Shown piece by piece: positions 3,001 to 17,894 of a stretch of 64,000 bases of DNA. Source of the DNA: an uncultured virus (IMG/VR IMGVR_UViG_3300030117_003229) (lineage: Duplodnaviria > Heunggongvirae > Uroviricota > Caudoviricetes); IMG/VR virus record IMGVR_UViG_3300030117_003229, positions 1 through 64,000 of that record; one strand, 5' to 3'. Under the pieces are notes generated by a model. That model saw nothing but the letters and a program-made list of their open reading frames with translations. It was not told the DNA's origin and did not search any database. The position numbers were made by a program, and so were the translations under genes. Within the stretch, counting starts at the first letter, position 1. Each line of letters opens with the position of its first letter.

Positions 3001-4192
3001 TATTTAAACCATTGTTTGCATCTGCTGGAGTTATTCTTACTATCTGATTTGACATTATACTATTAGCAGAACCATCATCTGCAACATGAAGAGGAGTTGC
3101 TGGTGAGACAGTTCCAACTCCAACTAAACCAGCCGAAGTAATGCTAAAATAATTACTAAATCCAGTATTAAGGTCTGGATAACTACTATTACTTGCTGTT
3201 AAGTGTGCAATTCGTAAATCGGAACCTGAACCATAAATATCCCAATTAGAATCATTACCTCCGCCTACATTATTTCTTATTCGTAAACCACCATTGTAGT
3301 TTTCAGTTGATTGGTCAATTGTAAGTGCTGGTGCTTGAGTTGTACTTTCAATATGTATTTTAGATTGTGGAGAGCTATTTGAAACACCTACATTACCATC
3401 AGAACCTTGAACAAAAAAAGCTGGATCAAGATTATCTGATAATACTCTAAAATCTATATCTCTACTGTCTTGATTAAATATAACTGCTGGAGTAGAGCCA
3501 GATGCCATTCTCATATACTCTCGTAAAGTACCATCAGTCATAACATCAAATTCTATTTGAGCATCTTCTGTACCATCTGATACATCACCAGATGCTACTT
3601 TTATCATAGCACCAACGAAATCTTGACTGTTGTCGTTTCTACCTTCAAAATCTATTTGACCAAAAACATCTGAGTCTGCTGGAGAAGATGAATTTCTATA
3701 TAATCTTAAATTTGGCCCAGAACTTGCATCAGCATCCGTAGATGTAAGTGTTAATGTATCTGTGTTATCAGCAGTTGTAATTTCTACATTACTTAAAAAC
3801 TTTGTACTTGTTGAATTTATTTCTAATGGAATAGTCGCATCTACGGCATCATTTACTGCATTTAATCGTAAAGATGAACTATTTGCAGTTGTTGTAAAAT
3901 TAACATTAGAAGCCATTTTTGCATGAAAAGTAGCTAATGGCGTGATTCCGATACCCACCCTAGCATTTGTGGTATCTACTATAAATACATCTGTTCCGTC
4001 CGCCTTCTCCACTAAAAAAGCAGATGTATTTGTTACTTTTACTTGCGATGTCCCTTCTATTATTTCATCGAAACTCAATGATCCTCCACCATCAACCTGG
4101 AGATCTCCATTGATGACTAAATCTCCTGTTATTGTACCACCAGAGGATATTTGTGCGGATGTTGTGCTAACTAAATTTTTAAATGATGCCAT
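41..4192 (-). CDS. Long tail fibre / receptor-binding protein with LamG (ConA-like) domain
   Basis: Repeated GNVGIGT..P...LHV modules, LamG-like segment (DFSVEALVR...YHHVCITFDR...YVNG), C-terminal YEEGT..YVKVGRQV motif. Confidence 0.85.
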   Translation of the reverse strand: MASFKNLVSTTSAQISSGGTITGDLVINGDLQVDGGGSLSFDEIIEGTSQVKVTNTSAFLVEKADGTDVFIVDTTNARVGIGITPLATFHAKMASNVNFTTTANSSSLRLNAVNDAVDATIPLEINSTSTKFLSNVEITTADNTDTLTLTSTDADASSGPNLRLYRNSSSPADSDVFGQIDFEGRNDNSQDFVGAMIKVASGDVSDGTEDAQIEFDVMTDGTLREYMRMASGSTPAVIFNQDSRDIDFRVLSDNLDPAFFVQGSDGNVGVSNSSPQSKIHIESTTQAPALTIDQSTENYNGGLRIRNNVGGGNDSNWDIYGSGSDLRIAHLTASNSSYPDLNTGFSNYFSITSAGLVGVGTVSPATPLHVADDGSANSIMSNQIVRITPADANNGLNIGSDGTDAMIGVTNNDTDLHFLSRTGGAYSKAMTIDGATGNVGIGSTPTRKLSVFGSAYTEAGGADANIFLSVANSSWSGMALLGGTSQGGFIDFGDTDAVHRGRILYSHASDSMQFNTSATERMRLTSTGVGIGCDHPSVPLEVELSGDTGTYFEGGGSGNGASDARHLTITASTTTNAGDTHTINAESATGVLKFATTGSDRMRINSSAVIIGTHNSNAHRLAIESRHSTVPFGQIVAGSSDQNQAVGFQFVTRDSNGDENNTMYLTSTGLGIGTNSPSAPIDVATSGSSGTAMILRNSDSIGMAININTDESFSMFDYVGGAYNRSITSQGGRVGIGTTSPSYPLTISKTESSASDFQTNLDIKRNWTLGDATDRLHGLIFSDLNSINAGIFVNRYNSAGNYESHLNFYTNGPNGGSSHMTPSNSLGNPKMTLNSSGSLGIGTSSPSNLASHGLQIQNTTTSSSTEGGEVKLTSNDGSALESGHRLGGIMFSAYEDSGSTQINGASIEAFAESNWTGSNNSTFLTFKTNESDNSYLERMKITSDGTVDHKGNYIVNEQGNQNHVANTMSSPYYRLDGVNDKIEVADNANLDFATNDFSVEALVRIPSGVASRTILGKIDHTNAGLEGYSMEVGANGKLAGRIVGNNTRTLISEGSTVIADGNYHHVCITFDRSANATVYVNGVAEGTTDISGSSGDASNSNPFQIGTNDQEANFTEMEISHARVFNNLLTATEVKELYSGASVEYKYKGANQTNLTSGTLVKGKAYIITTYNSNDDFTNLGASSNATGVKFVSTGTTPTEWNHSSVLHPIGAVAEYDGSSAGEKVWGDKSGNSLDGTVTGATLENAPYDAGTEYEEGTHTATVTCGTSGTITLNSSYQTLTYVKVGRQVTVTGLLFVSSVSSPDGFFKVSLPYAIASGDQHRVSGGVSMDNTSSANISDFVGLGISGESFLRVYLGDNTDAQSDSANDLQAGSYITVGLTYFT

Positions 4193-4201
4193 GCTATGCT
4201 C

Positions 4202-4534
4202 CTATGCTAAGACAATTCGTACTGTCGAGGTTGCACCTTTACCAAGTAAGTGCAGGTATACCGCTGATCCAATACCTTGAGGTACTGCTAATTCATAAAT
4301 GGTATCACCACCTGAAAGATATAAACTATTTGATGCACTGATCATGTCGCTTGAGGATGAACTAAAGCCATAGTATACATCGCTGCTAGGTTGTAATATG
4401 ATTGTGTGAACCGCAGTTACATTTAAATTATATTCTGTGCCTGTGGCTACGCTTTGTGCGGATTGTACTGAATGCTGTGCAGAGCTAGACATATTCAGTG
4501 ATTCAACCACTGAATGTTTGGATAGATCAGCCAT
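4202..4534 (-). CDS. Small virion protein (homolog of 37072..37416)
   Basis: Same position and MADL..S..E.LN / VRIV motifs as in phage B. Confidence 0.6.
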   Translation of the reverse strand: MADLSKHSVVESLNMSSSAQHSVQSAQSVATGTEYNLNVTAVHTIILQPSSDVYYGFSSSSSDMISASNSLYLSGGDTIYELAVPQGIGSAVYLHLLGKGATSTVRIVLA

Positions 4535-4592
4535 CTTTTTTCTCCTTTTCTAATGCCTTACCGAGCTTGGCTGCTCTCATGGGCATTTTGGT

Positions 4593-4778
4593 TTAATCTA
4601 TGATGCCTTGACTTCTTAGACTGGCATCTGAAATTGTTTTACTGTGAATCATTGGACTTGCAATTAACTTGCGAAATTTAAATGATCCGCATTTTGGGCA
4701 ACGTATTTTATCATCTTTGGACCATAACTGTTCCCACTTATAGTTGCAACGATGACATAAAAAATCGTTTGTTTTCAT
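4593..4778 (-). CDS. Zinc-ribbon protein (FmdB-like)
   Basis: CHRC...CPKCGS...KLIAS motif. Confidence 0.6.
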   Translation of the reverse strand: MKTNDFLCHRCNYKWEQLWSKDDKIRCPKCGSFKFRKLIASPMIHSKTISDASLRSQGIID

Positions 4779-4936
4779 TTCTTTTTCTTTAATGAAAGTT
4801 TTCTTTTAGGCTTCTTTACTTCGCCTTTTTCGTTACATGGCTCATAGCCTTTTTTAATAAAACTATCAATAGTTTCTTTGCTTATGGTATCTAGTTTTCC
4901 AAAAACCGAACCATCTTTTCTTTTAAAATATTTCAT
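4775..4936 (-). CDS. Small protein with Lys-rich C-terminus (start probably MKYFKRK)
   Basis: AGGAGA RBS before ATG at 4936; positional counterpart of 37473..37691. Confidence 0.6.
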   Translation of the reverse strand: MKYFKRKDGSVFGKLDTISKETIDSFIKKGYEPCNEKGEVKKPKRKLSLKKKK

Positions 4937-4953
4937 GTTTTCTCCTATGAACA

Positions 4954-4977
4954 TGGGTGGGCAATTTTGCCCACCCA
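4954..4977 (-). terminator. Stem-loop downstream of the capsid gene
   Basis: TGGGTGGGCAA-TT-TTGCCCACCCA inverted repeat; weak U tract. Confidence 0.5.
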
Positions 4978-5002
4978 CATTATTCATCATCTTTATATAC
5001 TA

Positions 5003-5875
5003 TTAAGATGGATTGTTGAAGTTAACAACTCCAAGTGATGTACTGGAAGCACCATGTGACAAAGATGCGCCAAACAAAATGTCGGCAACCACGCTTGTCG
5101 CTAAGTGATCTATATCATATGCTGACTGCACCCTAGGTGCGATCTGCATTGCCATGTACACTGATTCTTTCTTGAATACAGTCGCAGTTTCATCACCAGT
5201 ACCACCATCATCATCCCAATCAGTTGAAATGTATGTTGGCATACCATAAATAAAGCCTACGCCACCAGAGACATTAGGATTCTGATCGTCACCTCTACGA
5301 GATGAATCATAGAAATCCTGCAAACTCAAGAGGTACATGTACGCAGCAGGTGATGCATATAAGAATGTTTCACCATCAGCGTAATCGTGACCTGCATCTA
5401 ATAACTTCTGCAAACCTTCACGTAGCTTTGCAGAGGTTACTTGGTTATCTGTTCCAAGAGTTACATCATTACCAGTTGCAGATTGAAGTATGTCTACTGC
5501 CAAGTAGTTTTCAACCTTCTTAGCTAATGCATAACCCATAGACTGAGCATATGCACCAAAAAGGTTTGCACTTTCCTGGACGCGAACAATATCTTCGATT
5601 CTCTTCGCTTCATAATGATGTTGATTAACAGTAATGGTGACTTCACCATCAGTGTTGTTTGTGTAAGTTACCGCAGTTCCTGCGTCTTTTGAAGCGGCAG
5701 CTTCCTCTGTTACCTTTGGTATATGGAGTACATCTCCAGAAGGTAATTCGGATGAAAAGTCCATCACCTGATTACGCAACTCGAACTTACGTTCAGCATA
5801 ATCCAGGATAGCGTCCCTCCAGAGTTCTGGAATGAACTTTGCCGCGGTGGTAGTTGTTACGTTACCATCAGCCAT
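5003..5875 (-). CDS. Major capsid protein (HK97 fold)
   Basis: FIPELW N-terminal motif, GDVLHIP, position after scaffold; homologous to 37747..38643. Confidence 0.85.
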   Translation of the reverse strand: MADGNVTTTTAAKFIPELWRDAILDYAERKFELRNQVMDFSSELPSGDVLHIPKVTEEAAASKDAGTAVTYTNNTDGEVTITVNQHHYEAKRIEDIVRVQESANLFGAYAQSMGYALAKKVENYLAVDILQSATGNDVTLGTDNQVTSAKLREGLQKLLDAGHDYADGETFLYASPAAYMYLLSLQDFYDSSRRGDDQNPNVSGGVGFIYGMPTYISTDWDDDGGTGDETATVFKKESVYMAMQIAPRVQSAYDIDHLATSVVADILFGASLSHGASSTSLGVVNFNNPS

Positions 5876-5894
5876 TGTTTCTTTCCTTATTCAT

Positions 5895-6437
5895 TTATTT
5901 GCGTTTATATGAATCTAATATATTGCTCCAATTCATACGCCTGTCCTCGTCTTTAATCTTCCTTAATTCAACATTGCTATCATTGACTGGCTTAGATGGA
6001 GCATTAGAAACACTAACGCGTTGTGTTTTTAGTTTTTTTACTATAGCACGCAATGCTTCCAGAGGTAACTCTCCGAATGTGGCATGCTCTTCTTCTGGTA
6101 TCTCCATTAACAACTCAGCACGAAGCATTGCTTCTTGCTTTTTTGCAGCTTCAACAATGGGTTCGAGTTGCGCTAACTTTGCTGCGCGTTCCTCGGCAAG
6201 TAATTTCCATTGCTCTTGCTCTTCCATTTGAGATACACGAGAATCCTCGATTTCTTTGCGTAATTCTGCAAGTTCCAGCTCACTTTTTTGTGCGCGAGCG
6301 CGGTATTTCTTGCTTTCCGCGATAAGATTACCAACTTCGAGTTGCGGTTGGCTTTCTTCTTCTTTTTTTTCTGGTTCTACAGACTCAACTGTAGGTTCAG
6401 GCACTGGCTGTGCAACTTCGTTTTGTTCTTCGGACAT
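5895..6437 (-). CDS. Capsid scaffolding protein
   Basis: Acidic coiled-coil, LIAESKKYR motif shared with 38651..39187, directly upstream of capsid gene. Confidence 0.75.
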   Translation of the reverse strand: MSEEQNEVAQPVPEPTVESVEPEKKEEESQPQLEVGNLIAESKKYRARAQKSELELAELRKEIEDSRVSQMEEQEQWKLLAEERAAKLAQLEPIVEAAKKQEAMLRAELLMEIPEEEHATFGELPLEALRAIVKKLKTQRVSVSNAPSKPVNDSNVELRKIKDEDRRMNWSNILDSYKRK

Positions 6438-6447
6438 ACTGTCACTC

Positions 6448-6915
6448 CTATATGTTTAACTTTACGTGTGTCTTGCTCATACGTGATAGGTTCTTGCCAA
6501 TTGTATTGGCGAAGTCTTTTACGACACCTACTTCAACATCTTCACCTAAATGTTGATTTTCAGCTATGGAACGTTTTGGCATTTTTTCTGTGCCTTCATT
6601 ATGATTAAACAACTTCGTTCCTTGCTTATTTTTCTTAATGCCGTACAAATATTGTATTTCTTGATTTTTTTTAACTTTGGTGCGTTGTACATTGAATGCA
6701 TTTAGCATTTTACCAGATAGTTTTAAGTTTACATCACTCTTATTAACTTTTTTTCTAGCTGCGTAACTTTCTGAATATGGTGCATAGCTACCAAATGATT
6801 TACCTTGAAAATCTTTACCATCTAAAATCTGTTTCTTATGCCTTCTAACAGTATTCTGTGCCATTTTTTTGACATCGGATTCGTTAAACTTCAATATGTC
6901 TTGCAGTTTAAACAT
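6448..6915 (-). CDS. Virion morphogenesis / neck protein
   Basis: YAPYSESYA...VNLKLSGKMLN motif; homolog of 39247..39723. Confidence 0.6.
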   Translation of the reverse strand: MFKLQDILKFNESDVKKMAQNTVRRHKKQILDGKDFQGKSFGSYAPYSESYAARKKVNKSDVNLKLSGKMLNAFNVQRTKVKKNQEIQYLYGIKKNKQGTKLFNHNEGTEKMPKRSIAENQHLGEDVEVGVVKDFANTIGKNLSRMSKTHVKLNI

Positions 6916-7579
6916 CTATAGGACTCCAATAATGTCTGCAACGCACTCCACCACCATGCTCATATGCATCTGGCTTGACTTGTCGTATCTCAGACTTGGT
7001 TAATGGTCCACTAGCTAAAAATGTTCTGCATATCGGTCTGGTTTTCTCATCATCTGGTCCAATATACTCATATTCAGTATCTTCTGGTAAACCCATAGCC
7101 ATTGTTGCTATCACAGAACGCCTGTAATCGCCTAGTAGCGTGCCGATTATGTTCTCAGACCGAGGTACATTCGTCTTAACTGAATTACGCATTAAATCCT
7201 TTAACTGTTCACCACGCAGGCCACTAGAAAGACCTGAAACCATTGCATTCTGCATTGAGTTAAACACCTGCCTACTAACTCCTTCTATGCCTTGCCTTGA
7301 TAAATTTTGGATAGCCAAGAGTTGTGTTTCGCTTGGATTCCCAAAAAACGGCAAATCAGTAAGAATATCTTCTGTTGTAGCCATAAAGGAGTTGATTGCG
7401 GTAGAAAAACGTAGCTCTTCAATAAAATAGGACGAAAAATCAATTGCAGCGACAATACCCAATATTTCCGCTGTAGAGACACCTTCTTCCTCAAGGTTTT
7501 CCACATCCTCTGTAAATCCAGTGATGCTATCATCGATACTGCTTTCATACGAGTTAACTGCTTGGTCTATTGTTGGCAT
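6908..7579 (-). CDS. Minor capsid / head morphogenesis protein (Mu gpF/SPP1 gp7-like)
   Basis: C-terminal GPDDEKTRPIC...GGVRCRHYW; follows portal. Confidence 0.75.
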   Translation of the reverse strand: MPTIDQAVNSYESSIDDSITGFTEDVENLEEEGVSTAEILGIVAAIDFSSYFIEELRFSTAINSFMATTEDILTDLPFFGNPSETQLLAIQNLSRQGIEGVSRQVFNSMQNAMVSGLSSGLRGEQLKDLMRNSVKTNVPRSENIIGTLLGDYRRSVIATMAMGLPEDTEYEYIGPDDEKTRPICRTFLASGPLTKSEIRQVKPDAYEHGGGVRCRHYWSPIDV

Positions 7580-8915
7580 TTAAGATATTGAGTAGTCTAT
7601 TTTGTGGTGCAGGTTCTTGTGCTTCAGCTTGCTGTTCTTCAAACCTTGCTTTATCTTCTTGGCTTGCATCTGGGTTATGATAATCAAACCAATCCATTGG
7701 TGTAGATAAATTACGATCAAAACGCCAACTCCAAAGCATAATCTCTGCTTCTGGTGTTAATGCGTAGTTTGGTTCTAAGAAGTCAACACTATATTCGTCA
7801 CCTACGTTAATATTTGCTTCTACTTCTAAAATCTTTTTGTCTACCTTATATCTGCGCTGCTCCCAAGGTCTCCATGTATCCTCAGTCATTGCGCTGCGCT
7901 CATCCATGTTTTCCATTTCAATAATAGATAAACTAGCTGCGCTGGGTGCATTGCCTGAGTCATCTCTGGCGTATTTTGCACGAATGTGATTGTTATTTAA
8001 TGTGGTTTCCACTAGAAATCTTGTGGAATCTATAATCTGATTTAGGTTGCCACCACTAGATGTAACACCAAAATTACTTTGCTCTGGAAGATACAAAATT
8101 TTATCAGTGCCAATTGTAATACGACTTGGATCATCTACACCAGTAATGAATTTAATACCTAAACATCCATAGCGAATAGCTAGGTTTAATTCTAAGAGTG
8201 CCACATTCACTGCTAAATCTGTTTTCACCACATCTAGTGCGTTGCCTACGTGATAATCTCTGATCGGTGGATAGCGATGGCAAAACGTTACTGGTAGGAC
8301 TCCATATGGATTTATATCGTTTTCGTTCACACTCATCACTTTACCTTCTTCATCCACTAAGAAATGCCTTCCTGGTACACCATATCTTTCTTCAGTCCAT
8401 ACTGCGTTGACCACTTCCGAAGATCTAGCGTTGCCTTGGTTTTCAATTGGGTACATAACGCCAATAGGCTTCTCTCTGCTATCTCCAGCTAAGAAAAGCG
8501 GTGTAAAATGCGATAATATCTCGTATTCTATCTTTTGATCTACTTCGTTCCACTTACTCCTAAATGCCATATTACCCAAAAGAAACGTTAAACGCTCCAA
8601 GATCCTGCGCTGCGCGTTCAGGCCATGCTTGTCAATTGCATTCATATACAATTCACTTGCTCTCATGCGCGGTGGACGTTTATAAGTCATACTGCGCAGG
8701 CTGCAAACTCGGCGTGTTAAATTATTTTCTGGAATGACTGTCTGGCGCAGGGTTTCTGGACCAAAATAGTCACTCACGTAGTGTTCTAGGTTGATGCCTT
8801 CGTAGAAGTCCATCAAATAGTCACGCTCGCGAGTGCGCTCATCCTCGATGTATTTTAACTGCTCTTGCAATGCGCCTAATAATGCGCCTTCTGATTGATC
8901 TTGGATAATTAGCAT
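7554..8915 (-). CDS. Portal protein
   Basis: 453 aa directly downstream of TerL; GNAPS motif shared with 40375..41745. Confidence 0.8.
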   Translation of the reverse strand: MLIIQDQSEGALLGALQEQLKYIEDERTRERDYLMDFYEGINLEHYVSDYFGPETLRQTVIPENNLTRRVCSLRSMTYKRPPRMRASELYMNAIDKHGLNAQRRILERLTFLLGNMAFRSKWNEVDQKIEYEILSHFTPLFLAGDSREKPIGVMYPIENQGNARSSEVVNAVWTEERYGVPGRHFLVDEEGKVMSVNENDINPYGVLPVTFCHRYPPIRDYHVGNALDVVKTDLAVNVALLELNLAIRYGCLGIKFITGVDDPSRITIGTDKILYLPEQSNFGVTSSGGNLNQIIDSTRFLVETTLNNNHIRAKYARDDSGNAPSAASLSIIEMENMDERSAMTEDTWRPWEQRRYKVDKKILEVEANINVGDEYSVDFLEPNYALTPEAEIMLWSWRFDRNLSTPMDWFDYHNPDASQEDKARFEEQQAEAQEPAPQNRLLNILNANNRPSS

Positions 8916-8924
8916 ATTCTACCT

Positions 8925-9848
8925 TTAAAAGAAATCGATGACACCAGCGTGTCGGTTTTTCATTGGAAACAAATTAGTCAGTAAAAATCTAAGTGCATCG
9001 CAGTGATGGTCAAACTTACCATCCTTTTTAGGTTCGTGGCGCAGCGTTTGATCTTCACGATGCTCTGGATAATGATAATTTTCGTATGATTCGATACTTG
9101 CCTTACACTTAGGATGGATAAAAAAGTGAGGGTCACCATTGGCATCCTCAAACCACCTGCGTACATGCGATACTCCAGACACTACATTTCTGGTTACTGC
9201 ATCGCGTTTTATCTTGACGTTTAGACCATGTTGCTTAAAAACGGCTATATCACTAATTCCTGACTGCAAATTTGTGCCAGATCCTGCTGGATCGCCCCAT
9301 ATACCAGTAAATTCGTAGCCAAGTGAGTTAATTTTACGTGCAAACTCCTCTGTACGCGTGTTTTGCAGGTTGACTTCGTCAATTTGGTGTATTTCAGCGA
9401 AGTTTTTCTCACGCTTATGCAACTGCACGATATTCGCTGCGCTGTGACGATAGCCAAAATCTATACCCATATATACAGGCTTCGATGGATCGTAGGTTAC
9501 ATCCTCGCGTATCTGCTTTTCTCTATCTAGTGGATACACCTTGCCCTGGTATGACTGAAACTCGCAAAGAAACTCCTGCCTATAGGTTTCTTTTGTGAGT
9601 GTGCGTTTCAGTTCTTCTACGTCATCTTTAAAATATGGGGATAGCGTAGATGGAAATCGCCATGATTCCCAGTCAGGAAACTCAGGATTCTTGCCAAAAT
9701 CTTTGTAGAGCTTGTGCAGGTAGTTGAATCCACGCGGTGTACTAATAAATAAACACCAACCTTGTCGATCTGCTAGTGTAGGTCTTAAATACATCTCGTA
9801 TGTGTTACGTGGGATAAGTGCTGCTTCATCTATTATTAAATAATCAAT
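8925..9848 (-). CDS. terL: Terminase large subunit, C-terminal part (Walker B plus nuclease)
   Basis: Frame open upstream of the annotated ATG: IDYLIIDEAA (Walker B), ISTPRG, GIDFG, DHHCDALR. Confidence 0.9.
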   Translation of the reverse strand: MDYLIIDEAALIPRNTYEMYLRPTLADRQGWCLFISTPRGFNYLHKLYKDFGKNPEFPDWESWRFPSTLSPYFKDDVEELKRTLTKETYRQEFLCEFQSYQGKVYPLDREKQIREDVTYDPSKPVYMGIDFGYRHSAANIVQLHKREKNFAEIHQIDEVNLQNTRTEEFARKINSLGYEFTGIWGDPAGSGTNLQSGISDIAVFKQHGLNVKIKRDAVTRNVVSGVSHVRRWFEDANGDPHFFIHPKCKASIESYENYHYPEHREDQTLRHEPKKDGKFDHHCDALRFLLTNLFPMKNRHAGVIDFF

Positions 9849-9877
9849 GCCTAAAAATACCGACCTTTCGGTCAGCC
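9849..9877 (-). other. Putative translational bypass element in terL (GGC take-off, UGA, GAAA hairpin, GGC landing)
   Basis: Minus strand GGC TGACCGAAAGGTCGGTATTTTTA GGC ATT GAT; removing 26 nt restores SLIGDG-IDYLIIDE. Confidence 0.75.
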
Positions 9878-10261
9878 ATCTCCTATCAAACTATCGACTG
9901 CGTCAGCCGATTTTACAACTATTTCACTATTTAAGCCTGCGAGCTTCATATAGTATAAATCGCCAGAAATCTCTTTCTTGCTTTCTAATGGCAGTTTTAG
10001 TTCTGTCATTACAATACGCTTTACCTCACGTGCAATCTTATTTGCCAGTGAGTAGTTTGGTCCTACAATCCAACCACGTGTGTTGGGTGTGAGCAGCCAA
10101 GGCATGATCTCATGCGCTGCCATGTAGGATTTCCCACTGCGGCGGCCCATTAAACAGACGCGATACCTAGCTTTACTGTTATGAACGGCCAACTGCTGTG
10201 GAGTCGGTTGGTATCCCAAAATCCTCCATAGCTTTTGCTTGTTCAGTATTGACTTTATCAA
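9872..10261 (-). CDS. terL: Terminase large subunit, N-terminal part (Walker A)
   Basis: PTPQQ, GRRSGKS Walker A, WIVGPNY; ends SLIGDG-stop. Confidence 0.9.
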   Translation of the reverse strand: MIKSILNKQKLWRILGYQPTPQQLAVHNSKARYRVCLMGRRSGKSYMAAHEIMPWLLTPNTRGWIVGPNYSLANKIAREVKRIVMTELKLPLESKKEISGDLYYMKLAGLNSEIVVKSADAVDSLIGDG

Positions 10262-10586
10262 TCGGATTATCCTCGAAACCGCACTCTTTTAGCACTGTTT
10301 CTAAATTACCTGTCATGTCTACAGCAGTTTTATCTGTCATGCCAAGATAATTCTTGGCCATGAAGATTTGCATAGCAATTGAGTTGTTTTCCATTGCGCT
10401 AACCCACATGGATCTGCGCAGTTTGAACTTCATCTCTTCTTTACCAGCTTCTACCTTCGCTTTGAAGTGTTTGCGTATTGTACCTTCGGACACTTCAAAG
10501 TATTTGCCGATTTCGATGTAGTTGCAGCCAAAACTAGCAAGCATTTTTACCTTTTCAGGATCTATTTTCTTTGTTTTCTTATCCAT
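10179..10586 (-). CDS. terS: Terminase small subunit
   Basis: N-terminal HTH, MQIFMAKNYLGM motif, upstream of terL. Confidence 0.75.
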   Translation of the reverse strand: MDKKTKKIDPEKVKMLASFGCNYIEIGKYFEVSEGTIRKHFKAKVEAGKEEMKFKLRRSMWVSAMENNSIAMQIFMAKNYLGMTDKTAVDMTGNLETVLKECGFEDNPIDKVNTEQAKAMEDFGIPTDSTAVGRS

Positions 10587-10911
10587 CTTCCTTATTAGAG
10601 CTTTCGATGACAGCTTTTATTTTAATTAACGTCCTGCGCCAGTATTCTTTGACTGAGGACTCGGTTATCTCCATTTCCTGCGCAATATCTACAAATGCAT
10701 GGCCACGAATACGTTCTTTAAACACTCGTAACTCCTGTGGAGACATACGATCGTAGAACTGGTGCGCTGCGAGTTGCAGGTGGCGCAGGGATGGTTCGAT
10801 CAAACCACTTCGGAAAACTAGAATCATTGTGTGGTAGCGATCTGCGCGGTCGATAGCATGAAGCCACTTGTCAGTGTTGTCATCTGTTAGGTTACTCCAG
10901 ACTTCTTCCAT
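10579..10911 (-). CDS. Sigma-70 region 4-like HTH regulator (possible late activator)
   Basis: MSPQELRVF...FVDIAQEMEITESSVKEY. Confidence 0.65.
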   Translation of the reverse strand: MEEVWSNLTDDNTDKWLHAIDRADRYHTMILVFRSGLIEPSLRHLQLAAHQFYDRMSPQELRVFKERIRGHAFVDIAQEMEITESSVKEYWRRTLIKIKAVIESSNKEDG

Positions 10912-11009
10912 AGTAGAATTTACGCAGGGGTGTTGACAAAAACGAAGAGGAAAATTTTAAGACGCGGTAAGTGGCATTTTGGGTGGTTTGCCTTGGTGTA
11001 TCCGATCCT

Positions 11010-11037
11010 ATTATACATAATATATATTATGCGCAAT
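11010..11037 (-). other. dif-like XerC/XerD site 1
   Basis: Minus strand ATTGCGCATAA-TATATA-TTATGTATAAT vs E. coli dif GGTGCGCATAA-TGTATA-TTATGTTAAAT. Confidence 0.85.
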
Positions 11038-11156
11038 ACTAAGTGTTGATATTGTTAGACTTAGCATTTTACAATTTATTAGTTTGACTATTTGACATTG
11101 TGCGCCGCTTTTCTTTTTGTTTTTGCTTTGACTCAATATTTTTATTTAAGTAAGTG

Positions 11157-11185
11157 TTGACACATTATATATATATAGCTATATT
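11157..11185 (+). promoter_or_regulatory. Sigma-70 promoter of the early cassette
   Basis: TTGACA-17 nt-TATATT. Confidence 0.8.
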
Positions 11186-11240
11186 TTAGCGCGGAATGAG
11201 AGCCGCAAGAGAGTAATTAAAACAAAAGAGAGAGGTTAAA

Positions 11241-11528
11241 ATGGATCGATTAAGAGCATTTAAAATCAAACTATTACCAGCAACTAACACCAAAGGAACA
11301 CGTATTAAAATAATTGATACGTTTTTTAATGGCCGCACTAAAGATAAAGCAACCGCCGTTGTTTTATCATATGATTATCAATATAATCATTTGTTAGATC
11401 AAGCAATTAATCACTTAAAAAAAGTATGTAATATAAATATAGTTTCATGTTCATATAATACTAAAGATAATGCTTTTATATTATTAACAAACGATTTTGA
11501 AACTGAATTAACAAAAGAGAGAGGTTAA
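11241..11528 (+). CDS. Early hypothetical protein
   Basis: AAAGAGAGAGG RBS; PATNTKGTRIK motif typical of small phage early proteins. Confidence 0.65.
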   Translation: MDRLRAFKIKLLPATNTKGTRIKIIDTFFNGRTKDKATAVVLSYDYQYNHLLDQAINHLKKVCNINIVSCSYNTKDNAFILLTNDFETELTKERG

Positions 11529-11531
11529 AAA

Positions 11532-11717
11532 ATGAGTGATGATTTAATTATAGCGGTTAAACACTATTTAAAAGAAGTTGATAGACAAAGTCCAATTGTG
11601 CCAACTTCACATAACACACTAATTAAACTAGTGAGAATTTTTGGCGCAAAAGACATACGCGCTGAAATTAACAGGCAACTATATAAAGAGAAAAGAGAGA
11701 GGTTAAACAATGAGTAA
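11532..11717 (+). CDS. Early hypothetical protein
   Basis: Same RBS repeat; part of the operon. Confidence 0.55.
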   Translation: MSDDLIIAVKHYLKEVDRQSPIVPTSHNTLIKLVRIFGAKDIRAEINRQLYKEKRERLNNE

Positions 11718-12291
11718 TTACTTAACAAACACAAACAGCAAAATAAAAAAGACCGCTAAATTAAACGGCGTGCGCTTGTATGAGTTTAATTTGCCAGCGG
11801 TTTCATGCTGTCCATTTGCGGATATATGCAAGGAATATTGTTACGCTGATAAAGGCACGTTTAAATATCCTAATGTACAGGCAAAATATAATTCTAATTA
11901 TGAATTAACAAAAAACACTGAATTATTTATTGAATCAATCCAAAGTGAGTTAATAGAAAAGCGTGTTGAGTTTGTGCGCATCCATTCGAGCGGCGATTTT
12001 TACAGCCTTAAATATTTGCGTTCCTGGTTAACCATTGCAAAAAATAATCCTAATATTATTTTTTATGGATATACCAAAAGCGTACCATTTTTTAAATCTG
12101 TAACACCGCCGCCAAATTTTATCTTTTGTTTTTCTACTGGTGGGAAAATGGACCACCTAATAAAAGACACTGATAAACGCGCGGTAATATTTGATACTAA
12201 AGAGGATCTAAAAAAAGCGCGGTATATTGATTGCAGCGTAAATGATATGAAAATGATCGCAACGAATAAAATAGGACTTATTAAGCACTAA
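11710..12291 (+). CDS. Phage Gp88-like Cys-rich (radical SAM-related) protein
   Basis: FNLPA..CP....C..YCYA, RIHSSGDF, YGYTKS motifs. Confidence 0.7.
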   Translation: MSNYLTNTNSKIKKTAKLNGVRLYEFNLPAVSCCPFADICKEYCYADKGTFKYPNVQAKYNSNYELTKNTELFIESIQSELIEKRVEFVRIHSSGDFYSLKYLRSWLTIAKNNPNIIFYGYTKSVPFFKSVTPPPNFIFCFSTGGKMDHLIKDTDKRAVIFDTKEDLKKARYIDCSVNDMKMIATNKIGLIKH

Positions 12292-12341
12292 CTGAAGAAG
12301 GCAGAAGGCCAGAAACAGCGCATTTTTTGCGCTGTCTTAGT
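12287..12341 (+). ncRNA. Hammerhead ribozyme type I (variant, A-A at base of stem II), predicted cleavage after 12336
   Basis: Stem I ACTAA/TTAGT, CTGAAGA, stem II GGC/GCC, GAAA, stem III CAGCGCA/TGCGCTG, GUC. Confidence 0.8.
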
Positions 12342-12364
12342 CAAACAAATAAAAAGGAAAAACA

Positions 12365-12640
12365 ATGTATAACACTTTTAAAAACTGGTTAAATGAAAAT
12401 ACTCAACTTTCAAATAAATCAATTAGTAATTACGGCGGCGCGTTAAATAAAATTACACGCGATTTAATTACTGAAAAAATGATCGTTGAAAGTTTAGAAG
12501 AAATTAAAACAGCGGACCAAGTAAAAGAAACTAAAAAGAAATATTTCGCGATTGATAAATATAAAAAGCAAGATCATAAAGCTAAAAATATGTATCATGC
12601 TGGATTCAATAAATATATACTTTTTAGAGAATCTAATTAA
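12365..12640 (+). CDS. Hypothetical helical protein
   Basis: AAGGA RBS; FKNWL...LS..S..NY..AL...NMY motif. Confidence 0.6.
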   Translation: MYNTFKNWLNENTQLSNKSISNYGGALNKITRDLITEKMIVESLEEIKTADQVKETKKKYFAIDKYKKQDHKAKNMYHAGFNKYILFRESN

Positions 12641-12666
12641 TTAAACAAAAAAAGAGAGTAATAACA

Positions 12667-12954
12667 ATGATAAAACCAAAAACAAAAGCACAAAAAAAAC
12701 AAGATCAAACTAAACTAGACCAAGCCGCGCATAAATGCGCTAAAGCAATAAATAGCTTTGTTACTGAGTTATATGAAGGTGAATTCAGGCTTGATTGGAT
12801 TTACTTTAGCACAATTAATAAAATGCAGGAATCCGATAATAAATATCAATACGCTAAAAAAACTCAGAAGGAAGAATTTACATTTACTAGCTATGAAGAA
12901 GATAAGGATCATAAAGAATGGAATAATTCAACGCATATAGATAAATATAAATAA
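12667..12954 (+). CDS. Early hypothetical protein
   Basis: AAGAGAG RBS; ORF ends just before hammerhead 2. Confidence 0.6.
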   Translation: MIKPKTKAQKKQDQTKLDQAAHKCAKAINSFVTELYEGEFRLDWIYFSTINKMQESDNKYQYAKKTQKEEFTFTSYEEDKDHKEWNNSTHIDKYK

Positions 12955-12955
12955 A

Positions 12956-13027
12956 TCCATACTGAAGAGCGCGATTAATTACCGCGCGAAATATCGCCGT
13001 TTTTGCGGCGGTATCTATGGAAATTAA
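12956..13027 (+). ncRNA. Hammerhead ribozyme type I (canonical core), predicted cleavage after 13015
   Basis: Stem I TCCATA/TATGGA, CTGAAGA, stem II GCGCG/CGCGC, GAAA, stem III TATCGCCG/CGGCGGTA, AUC; loop II TTAATT can pair with AATTAA at 13022-13027. Confidence 0.92.
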
Positions 13028-13042
13028 AAAAGAGGTTTAAAC

Positions 13043-13129
13043 ATGCTTAAAACACTCGAAAAAATAGCGCATATATACTTATCAATATGCGTTTTAGTAT
13101 GGATATTACAACTATGTTTGAGTGGTTAA
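13043..13129 (+). CDS. Tiny hydrophobic peptide (28 aa)
   Basis: AAGAGG RBS; MLKTLEKIAHIYLSICVLVWILQLCLSG. Confidence 0.45.
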   Translation: MLKTLEKIAHIYLSICVLVWILQLCLSG

Positions 13130-13192
13130 TATGGTTTATTTTGGCGTTGATTTTGTATTTTAGCGCATCGGAATAAATACACAACACTAAAC

Positions 13193-13226
13193 AAAAAAAG
13201 CCGCGTTTTAAACGCGGTTTTTTTTT
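13193..13226. terminator. Bidirectional rho-independent terminator
   Basis: A7-GCCGCGTTTTAAACGCGG-T9 between convergent operons. Confidence 0.85.
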
Positions 13227-13366
13227 ACCTATACATACCAAGCCGCACAAATAAAACGCGCGTTTTTGCGCAAATTAAACACTAAAAATAAAAGATCTTT
13301 TGATCATTGCAGCCGTTTCAAATATTAGTTTGAATTCTACTTGTGTTTTTTCGTGTTTTAAATCCT

Positions 13367-13394
13367 ATTATACATAATCTTTTTTATGCACATA
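13367..13394 (-). other. dif-like XerC/XerD site 2 (direct repeat of site 1)
   Basis: Minus strand TATGTGCATAA-AAAAGA-TTATGTATAAT; ATCCTATTATACATAAT identical to site 1. Confidence 0.75.
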
Positions 13395-13505
13395 CTTTTT
13401 TTGAATTGATTTTTTTTCATTTTTGATCGATTTTTGCACACTTAATAAGGCATATTTGTGCTAATTATATTATACTGCTAGGGTTATTATATTATATGGC
13501 CAAGG

Positions 13506-13712
13506 TTATTTTTGTTTTTTAATTTGCCTGTTGCGCCATGACAACTTGGCGCGATTCTTAATTTTCAAAAAACACTTATCCAACTGGCTAACTCTAGTAT
13601 CATGCCACCACTCCAAAACCAGCGCACAATGAGTCTCGCCACGTATGTTTTGAGCAAACTCGCAGTAATTCTCTTTCTTATCCGAAAGTACGCACTTTTC
13701 AGGGTAAATCAT
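13506..13712 (-). CDS. Cys-containing hypothetical protein
   Basis: 68-aa ORF after the replication gene. Confidence 0.45.
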   Translation of the reverse strand: MIYPEKCVLSDKKENYCEFAQNIRGETHCALVLEWWHDTRVSQLDKCFLKIKNRAKLSWRNRQIKKQK

Positions 13713-13721
13713 CGATAGGCA

Positions 13722-13845
13722 GAATATGAAGACTATGAAGAATATGAAGACTTTCTCTCTCTCTCTTCTCGATAAACCAAATCACGCAAAGTCTTTTTTT
13801 ATTTTGCCAAAAGACTTTCAAAGTCTTCAAAGTCTTCAAAGTCTT
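13722..13845. repeat. Iteron-like repeats, putative replication origin
   Basis: GAATATGAAGACT x2 and CAAAGTCTT x4 (three in tandem); AAGACT core in both orientations, next to the primase-helicase gene. Confidence 0.6.
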
Positions 13846-13863
13846 TGTTTTCTTTGTGTCGAG

Positions 13864-15714
13864 TTAATCAAGAAAATCATCTAATTCAGTAGTTACTTTA
13901 CAGTAATGACCATGATCAAGTTTACGAATTAAGCCTTGATTTTCCATTCTTGAAAGCCAATTATATAAAGCTGTTTTACTGCTCAACTTCATCACACTTT
14001 CCAGCGCAACAGCAAACGCAGAGGTACTAAAATTATGACCATCTGTCATAACCGCAGCAAGCACGCGTTCTTCATTCGACTCTTTCGGATCGCTATACCA
14101 ATACATCTCATTTTTAGGAAGTGGCTTCATATATTTAAAATACAATTCACGCCGATCTTCTTCATCAATATTAATCATCTTAATACCAACTGGTACATTA
14201 TGCAACTCGTTATGACTGCGCACCTTCGTTATCTTCATTACCTTTAATCCAGGAACACGCCTAGCATCGGCCATTTGGACCAAACAATCCAAGAAGTTAG
14301 AATACGCAGATCCACCTAATAGCTGCGATACATCGAGTGGAGTCATCTCACCGATCTTCTTATGATGCGACACCAACACAATAGCAACCTTATGTCTTTT
14401 CTTAATATTCACGATCTTACGCAGCAATTCCATTATATCTGAGTTCTTAGACATCGACAACTGCGTACTGGTATACAAGTTATCCACCACCAGCACATCA
14501 TATTCTTCATGCACTAAATTAGCATCAATTATATCCCATTTATCCTGAAACAGATTCGACTGCCCATCACCAGTAAAGCGCAGGTTCTTATCCAAATTCT
14601 CTGACTCAATCGGATATTGATCCATCAACGGCTTACCTACATTCTTAATTAAGCCACTAAAACTCTCATCCTTCAACTCAAACTGCACATGCAACACACG
14701 CTGCGCAGTAGGAATCCGATAGTTCATAAACGGCACACCCATAGCAAGGCACATCGACAACTGCAAACTAAACACCGACTTACCCACATTCGTACCACCT
14801 GCGATACCCATAATGTCACCATCATAAAACAACGACTCAATGATCGGTCTAGGCAACTGGTTGAATGTGGTCCGAAACTGCGACATACTAAACGACTGCA
14901 TACCACCCAGATCCACCGCACTTTCACCATACCTATTGCACAAACTAAGCAGGTTTTCCAGCGTATTACCATCACTAAACCAGTCAGTTATATCATAGCC
15001 TAAAGGTTTATTTTTCCAATCAACGGCATACAACTCCAATTCCTTAGAAAACAGCCGTTTTGCTACCTTTTTCGAGCCTTCTATACCTTTTTCATCGTTA
15101 TCGTATATGATATATAGTTTATTATATCCTGTAGGCAAGGTTAATTCAGCAGGCAGCGCACCTGCACCAGACGTAAACGTAATCGCAGGTGCGCCTTGGC
15201 AGTATGCGGTGACTACATCTTTTTCACCTTCGCACAATATAAGATAGTTTTTGAGAAGTTGCGGAGTCCCAAACATCTTACACTGCGCATCACCGAACTG
15301 CTTTCCTTTATGATGCTTTACATGATTATCATTGATTTGAAATACTAACTGTGGCTTACCATCATCATTCTTTCGCACACCTACAGGCATTTTAAGACAT
15401 TGATCATTCCAAGGCAAGTCCATAGCCTTTACAAATTTTTCCCATCCATTTATAAATGCATTCCGCGCATCTGCGTAGCCACCTTTGTCGACAGATACAA
15501 CAGCCTTAGTATTACTTAATACGTATTCTTCTCTCTTTTGTATTTTCTCATCTTCATCAAATTGCCATGTTTTTTGACACTTATGGCAATGAGCATAATC
15601 CTCATTAATAGTTACTGTACCTTGAGGACGATTAGAGCCTAGATCACACTCAGGACACCAAGCTCTGTTACCATTACGAGATATGCGAGTAAATACATCC
15701 TGTGGGCGAATCAC
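13864..15714 (-). CDS. Primase-helicase (Zn finger + TOPRIM + RepA/AAA_25 helicase)
   Basis: CPEC...CHKC; LCEGEKD...YDND; GGTNVGKS; LVVD; VSHHKK. Confidence 0.85.
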   Translation of the reverse strand: MIRPQDVFTRISRNGNRAWCPECDLGSNRPQGTVTINEDYAHCHKCQKTWQFDEDEKIQKREEYVLSNTKAVVSVDKGGYADARNAFINGWEKFVKAMDLPWNDQCLKMPVGVRKNDDGKPQLVFQINDNHVKHHKGKQFGDAQCKMFGTPQLLKNYLILCEGEKDVVTAYCQGAPAITFTSGAGALPAELTLPTGYNKLYIIYDNDEKGIEGSKKVAKRLFSKELELYAVDWKNKPLGYDITDWFSDGNTLENLLSLCNRYGESAVDLGGMQSFSMSQFRTTFNQLPRPIIESLFYDGDIMGIAGGTNVGKSVFSLQLSMCLAMGVPFMNYRIPTAQRVLHVQFELKDESFSGLIKNVGKPLMDQYPIESENLDKNLRFTGDGQSNLFQDKWDIIDANLVHEEYDVLVVDNLYTSTQLSMSKNSDIMELLRKIVNIKKRHKVAIVLVSHHKKIGEMTPLDVSQLLGGSAYSNFLDCLVQMADARRVPGLKVMKITKVRSHNELHNVPVGIKMINIDEEDRRELYFKYMKPLPKNEMYWYSDPKESNEERVLAAVMTDGHNFSTSAFAVALESVMKLSSKTALYNWLSRMENQGLIRKLDHGHYCKVTTELDDFLD

Positions 15715-16367
15715 AGCGCACTGCGCAACTTATTTAATGCGCAGCAATGCTTAAAAACCTGCGCACCAGCGTCCAGTTTTTTGCGATCAATAACATGTTG
15801 ATGAAATTTGCCATCTTCCTTACCAAAACGCATTATGATACCATGAGATACCTTAGCCTTCGGCTGCGCAGCTTCGTACATAAACGTGTAGGCGCCTAGC
15901 TGGCAAATCATTTCTGGGTATGGACCGCCCTTTGAAGTTTTCCAGTCTACCACAATCAATTCATTATCTTTCTTGGCAATGGCATCTACTGTGCCACCAA
16001 CCTGCAACTCTTCATTTACCAGGACAAGTTCACTGGCTAATATTTTCATGCCTGCTTTGTCATACCATGACTTAAAGCCAAAAAAGGCTTTTAGTGCTTT
16101 TTCTTCTTGATTTGGTGTAAAATCACGCGTGTCAACATCAAAACCTTGAAAAAAGCCTTGTATTAATAGGTGTGTCAACGTTCCTATGCGACCTGCTTCA
16201 CGCATTACTGCATCAGCATCCTCGCCCTGCGCAGTCATCCGCTTTGCCCACGCAATCAAGGTATTCTTATTCCAACCTAACATAGCATTGATGATAGTGG
16301 TTACAGAACTAGCACGATTGCCATTCTGAAGGACATAATTCTGTCCATGTAGCTTTGTTTTACTCAT
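15711..16367 (-). CDS. PD-(D/E)XK exonuclease (Cas4-like phage nuclease)
   Basis: SVTTI, GTLTH, GTVD...DWKTS, QLGAY. Confidence 0.8.
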   Translation of the reverse strand: MSKTKLHGQNYVLQNGNRASSVTTIINAMLGWNKNTLIAWAKRMTAQGEDADAVMREAGRIGTLTHLLIQGFFQGFDVDTRDFTPNQEEKALKAFFGFKSWYDKAGMKILASELVLVNEELQVGGTVDAIAKKDNELIVVDWKTSKGGPYPEMICQLGAYTFMYEAAQPKAKVSHGIIMRFGKEDGKFHQHVIDRKKLDAGAQVFKHCCALNKLRSAL

Positions 16368-16466
16368 TCTCGTTCCTTTTGTATCTATTGATTAAAAATA
16401 ATATATAATGCACTAGTATAAGTGCCAGTATTCCATTTAGCAGGTATTCTGATATATCTATTAATA

Positions 16467-16670
16467 TCATTTTTCTACCTCATCATAAATTTCTAACAGC
16501 ATTTCTTCTATTTTTTCTGATCTTTCTTTCATAACTTTTTCCAAGTGCTTAAACTTTTGATTATTAAACCAGCGCATCAAATAATGATATATAATCAATA
16601 ACACTGCGATGTATACTAAGGTAAATACATCAAATCCATTCTCAGATAATGATTGTAGCCAAAAACTCAT
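16467..16670 (-). CDS. Small membrane protein
   Basis: One TM segment followed by a coiled-coil; GGAGG RBS. Confidence 0.5.
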   Translation of the reverse strand: MSFWLQSLSENGFDVFTLVYIAVLLIIYHYLMRWFNNQKFKHLEKVMKERSEKIEEMLLEIYDEVEK

Positions 16671-17419: not shown

Positions 17420-17446
17420 ACAAAGGAAAATACATATGTCATCCTC

Positions 17447-17683
17447 TTAGACATTTGCGTCAGGTGTGCAATATTTACAAATTTTTCTTTCTTTACCATA
17501 GGTCACAAAATCTTCGTAATACTCTATATGATACTTTGTTGTTTGTTTAGATTTTTCCCAGCACCGATTGCATGACTTACAATAATAAATATGTTCATCT
17601 GCTTTATATGCATCGGTATTTTTTCTGTCTTTTATTTTCTTTAAGGCAAATAATTTTTTACCCCACTGTAATACATTATCCAT
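17447..17683 (-). CDS. Zn-finger hypothetical protein (homolog of 46466..46735)
   Basis: CKSC..W...GKE.K.C..C in both phages. Confidence 0.6.
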   Translation of the reverse strand: MDNVLQWGKKLFALKKIKDRKNTDAYKADEHIYYCKSCNRCWEKSKQTTKYHIEYYEDFVTYGKERKICKYCTPDANV

Positions 17684-17894
17684 TTATCTCTCTCCTCACT
17701 TTATTAGTTATATCTACTTCAGAACCATCATACTGCACCTGCGCAGCAAACAATAGTTCTGCACCTCTTCTTAAATTTTTTAACTTTTTAAGGTCTTTAA
17801 TTAAATCTTTTAAGTCTAACCTTGTAATGACCTCATCAGCCGTTTGTAAATCTTCAGTATCATACTGGATGCTACCTGCGTAATATTCTATCAT
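17676..17894 (-). CDS. Hypothetical protein
   Basis: Coupled ORF in operon. Confidence 0.5.
   Translation of the reverse strand: MIEYYAGSIQYDTEDLQTADEVITRLDLKDLIKDLKKLKNLRRGAELLFAAQVQYDGSEVDITNKVRREING

Follow-up and report, generated by a model that had tools for sequence, protein, structure and literature searches.

The window examined here is the 64,000-nucleotide (nt) stretch of DNA at positions 1 to 64,000 of IMG/VR record IMGVR_UViG_3300030117_003229, from an uncultured virus of the Caudoviricetes, and its first half holds a phage, here called phage A, whose gene for the large terminase subunit (terL) is interrupted on the minus strand by a stop codon and a short hairpin. We found that 26 nt at this interruption are missing from uninterrupted relatives of the gene, and that they are probably a programmed translational bypass cassette of the T4 gene 60 type, lying inside the only terL of phage A. 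Skipping from a GGC codon at one edge of the interruption to a second GGC at the other gives the junction that is standard for the family, and the same hop does so in all 19 insert variants that we collected. That the bypassing takes place at the level of translation, along with every mechanistic step described below, we infer from sequence comparison. These inserts would make up a new, non-homologous family of gene-60-like bypass cassettes in the terL of uncultured marine phages, and no report of them was found in a full-text literature search that covered papers other than subscription-only ones.

An interrupted terL with a candidate hop site

The protein of the terL 5′ open reading frame (ORF) ends ...SADAVDSLIGDG, before GGC (9877-9875) and TGA (9874-9872), and the last two bases of this take-off GGC together with the stop form the 5′ arm of a hairpin (9876-9859). 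The downstream terL frame is the −1/+2 frame, open from 9890 to a stop at 8925-8927, and joining the two parts gives 129 + 307 = 436 amino acids (aa). A sequence-only reading of this DNA had described the end of the 5′ ORF, the GGC-UGA, the hairpin of 7 base pairs (bp) with its GAAA loop, the 23-nt spacing, the second GGC and the IDYLIIDE strand behind it, and all of these statements hold.

Both pieces are recognizable as TerL. The 3′ piece matches Pfam Terminase_6N (E 1.8e-6), and PHROG phrog_2 TerL is matched by the 5′ piece over profile positions 264-359 (E 2.7e-11) and by the 3′ piece over 364-596 (E 2.2e-29), so that the two are nearly contiguous in the profile, the N piece running to 359 and the C piece starting at 364. 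They thus match TerL profiles in the right order, and it would take a bypass of the gap to make them one polypeptide. A second TerL in the record (41755..42957, 400 aa), to whose N-terminus the 5′ piece is 27% identical, is uninterrupted, in agreement with what had been said of it from the sequence. Six residues separate the LxG glycine from the hhDE strand both in this second TerL and in the hop product, and a −1 shift would put fifteen there. The proposal that a GGC-to-GGC skip restores a 436-aa TerL with normal spacing is therefore matched by the second TerL, and also by the uninterrupted relatives described below. Among cultured phages, blastn gave no match and tblastn returned 1227 records, all below 60% identity and the best at ~31%.

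In the mechanism we favour, a ribosome reaching the gap would hold peptidyl-tRNA-Gly on GGC with UGA in its A site. The 7-bp GNRA-capped hairpin, whose 5′ arm is made of part of the take-off codon and the stop, would re-form at the A site and hinder termination, and the peptidyl-tRNA would leave GGC, with the ribosome sliding across hairpin and A/U spacer in the 3′ direction. Behind the stem, the second GGC is the first codon cognate to the tRNA, which would re-pair there, and decoding would restart at AUU to give the 436-aa TerL with a normal LIGDG-IDYLIIDE junction. Ribosomes failing to hop would terminate and leave a 129-aa fragment. The AGGAG that precedes the take-off codon by 2 nt may aid take-off by pairing with 16S rRNA. 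Bypassing of this kind would explain why the stop lies exactly at the first gap codon, and why both codons of the pair change together when the insert moves by one codon, as seen in one of the variants described below.

Uninterrupted and interrupted relatives

Viral contigs were scanned with the 3′ TerL piece, and from 190 matching stretches 80 loci were kept (63-100% aa identity), of which 79 are informative because one, L074, stops short of the insert site. Fifty-nine of the 79 are uninterrupted and run from G-D/E-G straight to I/V/C-D-Y/W/F (for example GGA GAT GGA ATA GAT TAT, giving GDGIDY), so these relatives encode the predicted junction directly and the hop product would be the family norm. 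The other 20 carry a stop-containing insert at the same site, and an in-frame, stop-free insertion at the site was seen in 0 of the 79. Six of the loci lacking the insert (L004-L006, L009, L061 and L064) read GGA GAT GGA ATA GAT TA and are close kin of the window, with 95-100% aa identity in the N piece and 97-98% in the C piece; L006 encodes LIGDG-IDYLII without a break. This comparison of 59 uninterrupted and 20 interrupted loci supports the gene-60-like hop that had been proposed from the sequence.

Four motif scans added 11 insert-bearing contigs. The hits lay in a terL context in 20/64, 19/56, 4/4 and 5/5 cases, and the remaining hits were unrelated sequence, in about the number expected by chance for such short patterns. 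In total 31 insert-bearing contigs with 19 distinct variants were obtained. A metagenome-wide motif scan placed 8 of its 67 hits in terL, all of them variants already found, a motif scan for the long hairpin returned only 5 contigs, all already known, and a search starting from the divergent L076 TerL gave 9 loci, 3 of them new and none with an insert.

The 26 nt are present in independent assemblies. In run X1, which may be the source sample, a Logan contig spans 9500-9953 with 0 differences, and a contig of run X5, from another study, spans 9808-10030 with 1 substitution and no gap; both include the 26 nt, and both are assembled contigs, not raw reads. Taken together with the inserts in relatives, they exclude a base-calling indel. 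The sequence-only reading had named such an error, along with homologs carrying an in-frame 9-aa insertion, as what would speak against a hop; the 26 nt are in the X1 and X5 contigs, and no homolog of that kind is among the 79 loci. Two RNA contigs approach the site, one (run X16) ending at 9845 with a loose end that is the junction of an insert-less genotype, the other (run X15) starting at 9875, and they neither show nor exclude removal of the insert from RNA. The X16 contig has the flanking codons of the insert-less genotype and is therefore not a spliced product.

The 19 variants fall into four types (Table 1). Their inserts, counted as gap plus landing codon, are 26-51 nt long and the gaps 23-48 nt. 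The lengths include 26, 27, 29-32 and 34 nt, as well as 45 and 51 nt for the long hairpin, and insert length modulo 3 is 0 in ten variants, 1 in four and 2 in five. UGA comes immediately 3′ of the codon used for take-off in 16/19. Type C has no adjacent stop, with GGU or AGU there instead, and an in-frame UAA 13-15 codons on. The take-off tRNA has a cognate landing codon in 14/19 variants (GGY/GGY, once AUU/AUC), the landing codon being AGC in the other 5/19, and in 18/19 the sequence from stem to landing site offers it no earlier cognate codon, the exception being L076. In that same variant the insert sits one codon further 3′, and the codon pair has changed jointly from GGY/GGY to AUU/AUC. 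Two in-frame stops are held by four of the in-frame variants (L056, L081, L083 and L076) and a single one by the other six, which is UGA in L037, L049 and L082 and UAA in L062, L063 and L077.

Table 1. Types of insert among the 19 terL variants
Type	Variants	Position of insert	Take-off	Stem and loop	Spacer	Landing
A	window, L008, L010, L012, L037, L049, L056, L075, L081, L082, L083, L115, L187		GGY, in G-D/E-G	UGACC-GNRA-GGUCR	A/U-rich tail	landing codon
B	L007, L212		GGY	UGAAUGGG-UUU-CCCAUUCA	CUUUUUAA..	GGC
C	L062, L063, L077	two codons upstream	GGU	~15-bp stem (−38 kcal/mol)	AUAAAAU or ACUUGAUUAACCA	GGC
D	L076	one codon downstream	AUU	UGACC-UUCG-GGUCA	AUUAUAAAAU	AUC

Conservation of the hairpin and of the gene

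In an alignment of 13 variants of types A and D, 98.9% of cells in the 7-bp stem are paired, with slid controls at 2-43%. One stem pair, which includes the third base of the take-off codon, changes from U-A to C-G in three sequences, and the loops are GAAA, GAGA, GGAA and UUCG, which belong to two classic stable tetraloop classes. In the GGU variants the stem grows to 9 bp and the whole take-off codon is enclosed. At the same position, L007 and L212 have one unrelated hairpin and L062 and L077 have another. The sequence-only reading had proposed aligning terL from related phages for conserved codon pairs and hairpin covariation, and this alignment gave the 14 of 19 cognate pairs, the one compensatory stem pair and the swaps of tetraloop class. 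In the window itself the 46-nt fold at the hairpin has an energy of −13.1 kcal/mol with z = −3.19, a stability reached by 1 shuffle in 200; the 19-nt motif occurs a single time in the window against 0 expected. The hairpin with its AUUUUU also matches a simple terminator pattern, and the U-run is missing from most variants. TGA closes 8 of the 40 ORFs in the phage A half of the record and is therefore an ordinary stop here.

Both terL halves are open in 18/18 insert-bearing genes examined. For the part of terL downstream of the insert, the ratio of non-synonymous to synonymous substitution rates (dN/dS) among insert-bearing pairs is 0.03-0.07, and for the upstream part it is 0.09-0.18 (seven usable pairs); judging from these ratios both halves are under strong purifying selection. 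Five further pairs were dropped: win-L049 and win-L056 had an inflated dN in the C part, probably through an indel that shifts the register of an ungapped comparison, L056-L075 and L037-L075 had no defined dS downstream, and win-L003 had an uninformative ratio, with 0 non-synonymous changes downstream and 1 upstream. Downstream-flank identities from the comparison of gap conservation were likewise discarded as unreliable, since a one-codon indel puts these ungapped comparisons out of register. The complete related genomes with an insert have a single terL locus. With or without the insert, the peptide encoded before the take-off codon is the usual conserved TerL sequence, and Asp, as opposed to Glu, before the take-off Gly is commoner with inserts, though not significantly (independent pairs, p 0.5).

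Distribution and possible mobility

In an 80-row tree built from the 3′ piece, presence and absence of the insert require at least 11 changes, or 13 when cassette types are counted. A single clade, 95-100% identical to the window in aa of the N piece and 96-100% in the C piece, mixes the 26-nt window form, 31- and 32-nt A forms, a B form and loci with no insert. Both the A and the B cassette turn up again in diverged backbones, with an identity of only 0.29-0.56 at upstream third codon positions, and between those backbones the first 18 nt of the gap are identical at 17-18 of 18 positions. The flank AGU UUG AUA GGA GAU GGY ... AUU accompanies A-type inserts (window, L003, L008 and L010) and UCU YUN AUU GGA GAU GGA AUA accompanies insert-less loci; the B-type L007 and L011 retain the UCU UUA AUU flank. 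Such a distribution is what an exchangeable cassette would give, or recombination with insert-less kin that has removed the insert repeatedly. The sequence-only reading had suggested that the element limits or times production of TerL. None of our tests supports this, and a selfish or exchangeable element would account at least equally well for the patchy, cassette-like distribution.

The order sig-terS-terL-portal is compact and the same in all loci with or without the insert, and there is no extra ORF between terS, terL and portal. No match to the Pfam HNH, GIY-YIG or LAGLIDADG families was found among the 40 ORFs scanned (window positions 41..37071), and no HNH or GIY-YIG gene is present in 5 related genomes, 3 with the insert and 2 without. 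A small PD-(D/E)XK gene (17894..18307) was considered as an insert-linked endonuclease and rejected: it is a core gene common to all 5 of these relatives and so is not linked to the insert. In the relative with the B-type insert, the match to the PD-(D/E)XK gene (L221, G001:C1:11671-12081) contains one in-frame TAG, which could mark a broken gene or another interruption.

A joint reading of these observations is possible, though we hold it to be doubtful and offer it tentatively. The inserts might be endonuclease-free, self-contained hop cassettes, tiny mobile elements acting at the RNA level, that recombination at the Walker B region of terL carries from one co-infecting marine phage to another, and they might persist by carrying all that a hop would need: the AGGAG, the UGA, the tetraloop hairpin, the A/U runway and a matched landing codon. 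The phage might in turn tie TerL output to the activity of release factor 2 (RF2) or to the state of translation, throttling the packaging motor or staying below the threshold of Avs-type host sensors, which recognise large terminases.

Anatomy of the interrupted gene

The features of the interrupted gene are collected in Table 2. The small stem-loop predicted upstream of the take-off codon is a possible counterpart of the 5′ stem-loop of T4. The TTG start of terL (10261) lies ~80 nt inside the 3′ end of a terS-like ORF (10179..10586), and this overlap is kept in relatives down to 50% terS identity.

Table 2. Features of the interrupted terL in the window
Feature	Position	Strand	Remarks
Shine-Dalgarno-like GAGGA	10270..10274	-	8 nt upstream of TTG start; read from sequence
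terL 5′ ORF	9872..10261	-	129 aa; TTG start 10259-10261; ends GGC-TGA
Walker A GRRSGKS of terL 5′ ORF	10127-10147	-	
Small stem-loop UCGGCUG-ACG-CAGUCGA	9894..9910	-	17 nt 5′ of take-off codon; prediction only
Shine-Dalgarno-like pentamer AGGAG	9880..9884	-	inside codons AUA GGA GAU; 2 nt upstream of take-off codon
Take-off codon GGC (Gly129)	9875..9877	-	
UGA stop	9872..9874	-	directly 3′ of take-off codon; part of hairpin 5′ arm
Take-off hairpin GCUGACC-GAAA-GGUCGGU	9859..9876	-	7 bp; GNRA tetraloop
A/U-only spacer AUUUUUA	9852..9858	-	hairpin to landing codon
Landing codon GGC	9849..9851	-	
26 nt missing from uninterrupted relatives	9849..9874	-	23-nt coding gap + landing codon
Resume codon AUU and Walker B strand IDYLIIDE	9825..9848	-	ATT GAT TAT TTA ATA ATA GAT GAA
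terL 3′ part	8925..9848	-	307 aa + stop; Walker B and nuclease domain

Alternative explanations

Several observations weigh against bypassing. The AGC landing codon of five variants pairs with the Gly anticodon at 2 of 3 positions, and cutting and joining would give a perfect GG|C in its place. The rows with the long GC hairpin (L062, L063 and L077) have no stop beside the take-off codon. The matched codons could alternatively be a 3-nt target duplication left by insertion. In contrast to gene 60, a Shine-Dalgarno-like triplet (GAG, GGA, GGG or AGG) does not occur with any consistency 5-7 nt 5′ of the landing codon, the spacers being AUUUUUA, GAAUAUA.. and others. Among the 13 A-type rows, 12 have AGGRG at a distance of 2 nt before the take-off codon, as opposed to 4 of 59 insert-less rows, those four being sisters of insert-bearing rows, and an independent-pairs sign test of the association gave ~4 pairs in agreement and 0 opposed, with a median p of 0.125, which is not significant; AGGAG may be a take-off stimulator, or it may merely be flank carried along with the cassette.

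The AGC variants bear on the idea that the insert is cut from the mRNA, by an unconventional small intron or a hairpin-guided cut-and-ligate reaction, so that a standard ribosome reads a repaired message. A junction inside the codon (GG|C) would restore a perfect Gly codon in all five and here fits better than bypassing, all length classes are covered equally well, and conservation of the hairpin is also compatible with a structure-guided nuclease. We nevertheless regard removal from RNA as improbable. It does not account for the in-frame UGA with which the gap opens in 16/19 variants and leaves the joint change of take-off and landing codons in L076 unexplained, the hairpin lies at the 5′ edge with an unstructured A/U 3′ boundary, unlike bulge-helix-bulge sites, a permissive search of 9600-10100 gave no Rfam match, and the sole insert-less RNA contig (X16) has the flanking codons of the insert-less genotype. 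Nor do we know of splicing of a 26-51-nt element of such kind in bacteria or phages. An inactivated terL, in a defective phage or a decaying copy, or an artefact of assembly is hardly credible. Assembly quality is a fair concern here, as the record resembles two joined genomes, but the same 26 nt occur in contigs of two studies, 31 other contigs have related inserts, both halves are intact in 18/18 genes with dN/dS of 0.03-0.18, and complete insert-bearing relatives have no second terL that could stand in for the interrupted one.

Conventional recoding would have to differ from variant to variant, with a −1 shift where the insert length is 2 modulo 3 (the window would gain LTERSVFLG), an RF2-like +1 shift where it is 1, and readthrough where it is 0, and TerL would have to tolerate 9-17 extra residues before Walker B. 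Parts of this scheme suit the sequence, for the frame is open from 9890, so that a −1 shift anywhere in 9875-9890 would give one polypeptide, the order AGGAG, 2-nt spacer, codon and UGA resembles the prfB +1 site, and six in-frame variants have one in-frame stop. It is nonetheless very unlikely, as it calls for three mechanisms in one homologous cassette, of which the −1 shift serves only five variants, the +1 shift only four and readthrough six of the ten in-frame ones, since L056, L081, L083 and L076 have two in-frame stops. There is no slippery heptamer at the window site, the variation of the gap tracks the stem and not the codons, and the lack of stop-free insertions in the 79 loci gives no sign that extra residues are tolerated. 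The earlier view that a −1 shift fits less well than a hop is borne out by the insert lengths, which take all three values modulo 3 across the variants. A genuinely split terL, in which the 129-aa Walker A piece ends at UGA and the Walker B and nuclease piece is made by termination-reinitiation, strikes us as highly improbable. An AUG, GUG or UUG in the resume frame overlaps or lies beside the take-off and stop region in 8/19 variants (G-AUG-GUU-GA in L008 and L010; GG-UUG-A in L012, L075, L115 and L187), but 11/19, the window included, have none upstream of the resume codon in that frame, and in several variants the frame opens only 6-9 nt before it. The resume codons themselves (AUU, AUA, GUC, GUA, UUA, GAU, GAG and GAA) are not starts, except for the weak AUU, and there are no intein or interaction tails and no added ORF between terS, terL and portal. 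No scheme of frameshifting, readthrough or reinitiation fits all variants, and translational bypassing is the reading we prefer.

Comparison with known systems

To our knowledge, efficient translational bypassing is among the rarest decoding events known, and the published natural cases are the T4 gene 60 family, in myovirus topoisomerase genes only, the phiHau3 candidate and the yeast mitochondrial byps. The byp elements of Magnusiomyces capitatus mitochondria are reportedly short hairpin inserts of tens of nt with matched codons, of several sequence types and with a patchy, mobile-like spread, and they are said to have no endonuclease of their own. Unlike the byps, which occur in many yeast mitochondrial genes, all cassettes found here lie at one site of one phage gene, and the A-type hairpin occurs as an insert only in the terL context (20/64, 19/56 and 8/67 hits, the remainder being unrelated sequence). 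In the prfB gene for RF2, a programmed +1 frameshift of one base takes place at a slippery CUU-U. Both in prfB and at the terL site, a Shine-Dalgarno-like sequence precedes the P-site codon by a few nt and UGA follows that codon, so the outcome could depend on RF2 activity; the terL site is unlike prfB in that GGC/GGU cannot re-pair at +1, and in that the frame change needed differs between variants.

For gene 60 cassettes, a survey of the homologs gives as conserved a pairing of codons that can be GGU/GGC, a stop, in some cases UGA, a stem-loop at take-off whose loop is UUCG or GNRA, a 3′ part of the gap rich in A and U, and gap lengths of 20-50 nt (Manning & Atkins 2022, 10.1101/2022.08.31.505936). 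Measured against that survey, the terL inserts are like the gene 60 family, in which T4 has a 50-nt bypass, in their matched codons, including GGU/GGC, with a Gly take-off codon preceded by Asp, in the stop directly after take-off, UGA in some gene 60 homologs, in a stem-loop that holds take-off codon and stop under a UUCG or GNRA cap, in the A/U-rich 3′ gap and in gap lengths within the 20-50-nt range. They are also alike in being optional and repeatedly inserted within one or two codons of one site of an essential conserved gene. The words 'terminase' and 'marine' occur 0 times in that survey (10.1101/2022.08.31.505936). Unlike the gene 60/MobA cassette, which sits in the topoisomerase II large-subunit gene with a MobA HNH endonuclease, or what is left of one, and with extensions at the N- and C-terminal ends, the host gene here is terL, the phages are uncultured marine ones of ~32-36 kb, there is no homology between the cassette sequences, and neither MobA nor another HNH/GIY-YIG gene was found in the 5 relatives or the 40 window ORFs. 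The terL cassettes also differ from gene 60 in having no element-borne N-terminal extension that could supply a nascent-peptide signal, in having AGGAG 2 nt before take-off instead of a consistent mini-Shine-Dalgarno 5-7 nt before landing, and in showing at least three unrelated hairpins at one site and five AGC-landing variants.

Short bypasses in actinophage terL genes, which the sequence-only reading had mentioned, are indeed described in a study of Streptomyces phage phiHau3, where two 10-nt inserts led by UUA are proposed to be bypassed (Antonov et al. 2023, RNA Biol, PMC10732093). As presented there, phiHau3 is like the present case in having a coding gap within the large terminase gene, a junction defined by uninterrupted homologs, an argument that extra junction residues are unlikely, and a candidate regulatory role for terminase supply. 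The two differ in that phiHau3, by the same account, has as its trigger the rare UUA codon and tRNA availability in Streptomyces, with 10-nt gaps in 3/100 genes, whereas here the trigger would be UGA with a tetraloop hairpin, the gaps measure 23-48 nt (in the window one of 23 nt that begins with UGA) and inserts are present in 20/79 relatives, in an AT-rich phage where UUA is an ordinary codon.

Other features of the record

The full record of 64,902 nt resembles two collinear, different phage genomes of ~32 kb in tandem, A at ~1-33.5 kb and B at ~33.5-64.9 kb. Gene order is the same in both halves and the two TerLs are only ~25% identical. Direct repeats, 73-85% identical, recur at a spacing of 31.4-32.8 kb (31775-32074/63457-63756, 3264-3398/36023-36157 and 31532-31644/62933-63045), and relatives with terminal repeats measure 32.4 and 33.1 kb. 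The record is probably a chimera of assembly or binning, despite its rating as 100% complete.

A 43-nt direct repeat (10993-11035/13350-13392, 79% identical, core TCCTATTATACATAAT) flanks the only plus-strand gene block (11241-12954, which includes a GP88-family gene), and its copies may be the two ends of a cassette, or else sites of regulation or of divergent promoters. Two ORFs, 41-4192 and 22831-24549, hold a concanavalin-A-like lectin domain (Laminin_G_3, E 3e-21 and 2.5e-20) and probably encode receptor-binding tail proteins; a weaker 'Toxin_R_bind_N' match falls on the same stretch as Laminin_G_3 and so is not a toxin call. A C-5 cytosine DNA methylase (16667-17419, Pfam E 3e-45) lies among the replication and recombination genes of phage A and probably has an anti-restriction function.

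Significance

Gene callers split terL genes of this kind in two, so surveys of viral marker genes miss them or give them the wrong size. If the bypass reading is true, the terL inserts would be a second, non-homologous phage family, and the gene 60 solution of matched codons, a stop, an A-site tetraloop hairpin and an A/U runway would have arisen more than once. The family has dozens of members in abundant uncultured marine phages, with several unrelated hairpins at one site, it varies naturally in gap length (23-48 nt), loop type, take-off codon and landing match, and it has neither a homing endonuclease nor an element-borne leader peptide. It would then reveal which features of gene 60 are dispensable. 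Should the inserts indeed be hop cassettes, their unrelated hairpins, at least three in number, and the 19 natural variants would be a ready-made mutational series for the mechanism of bypassing.

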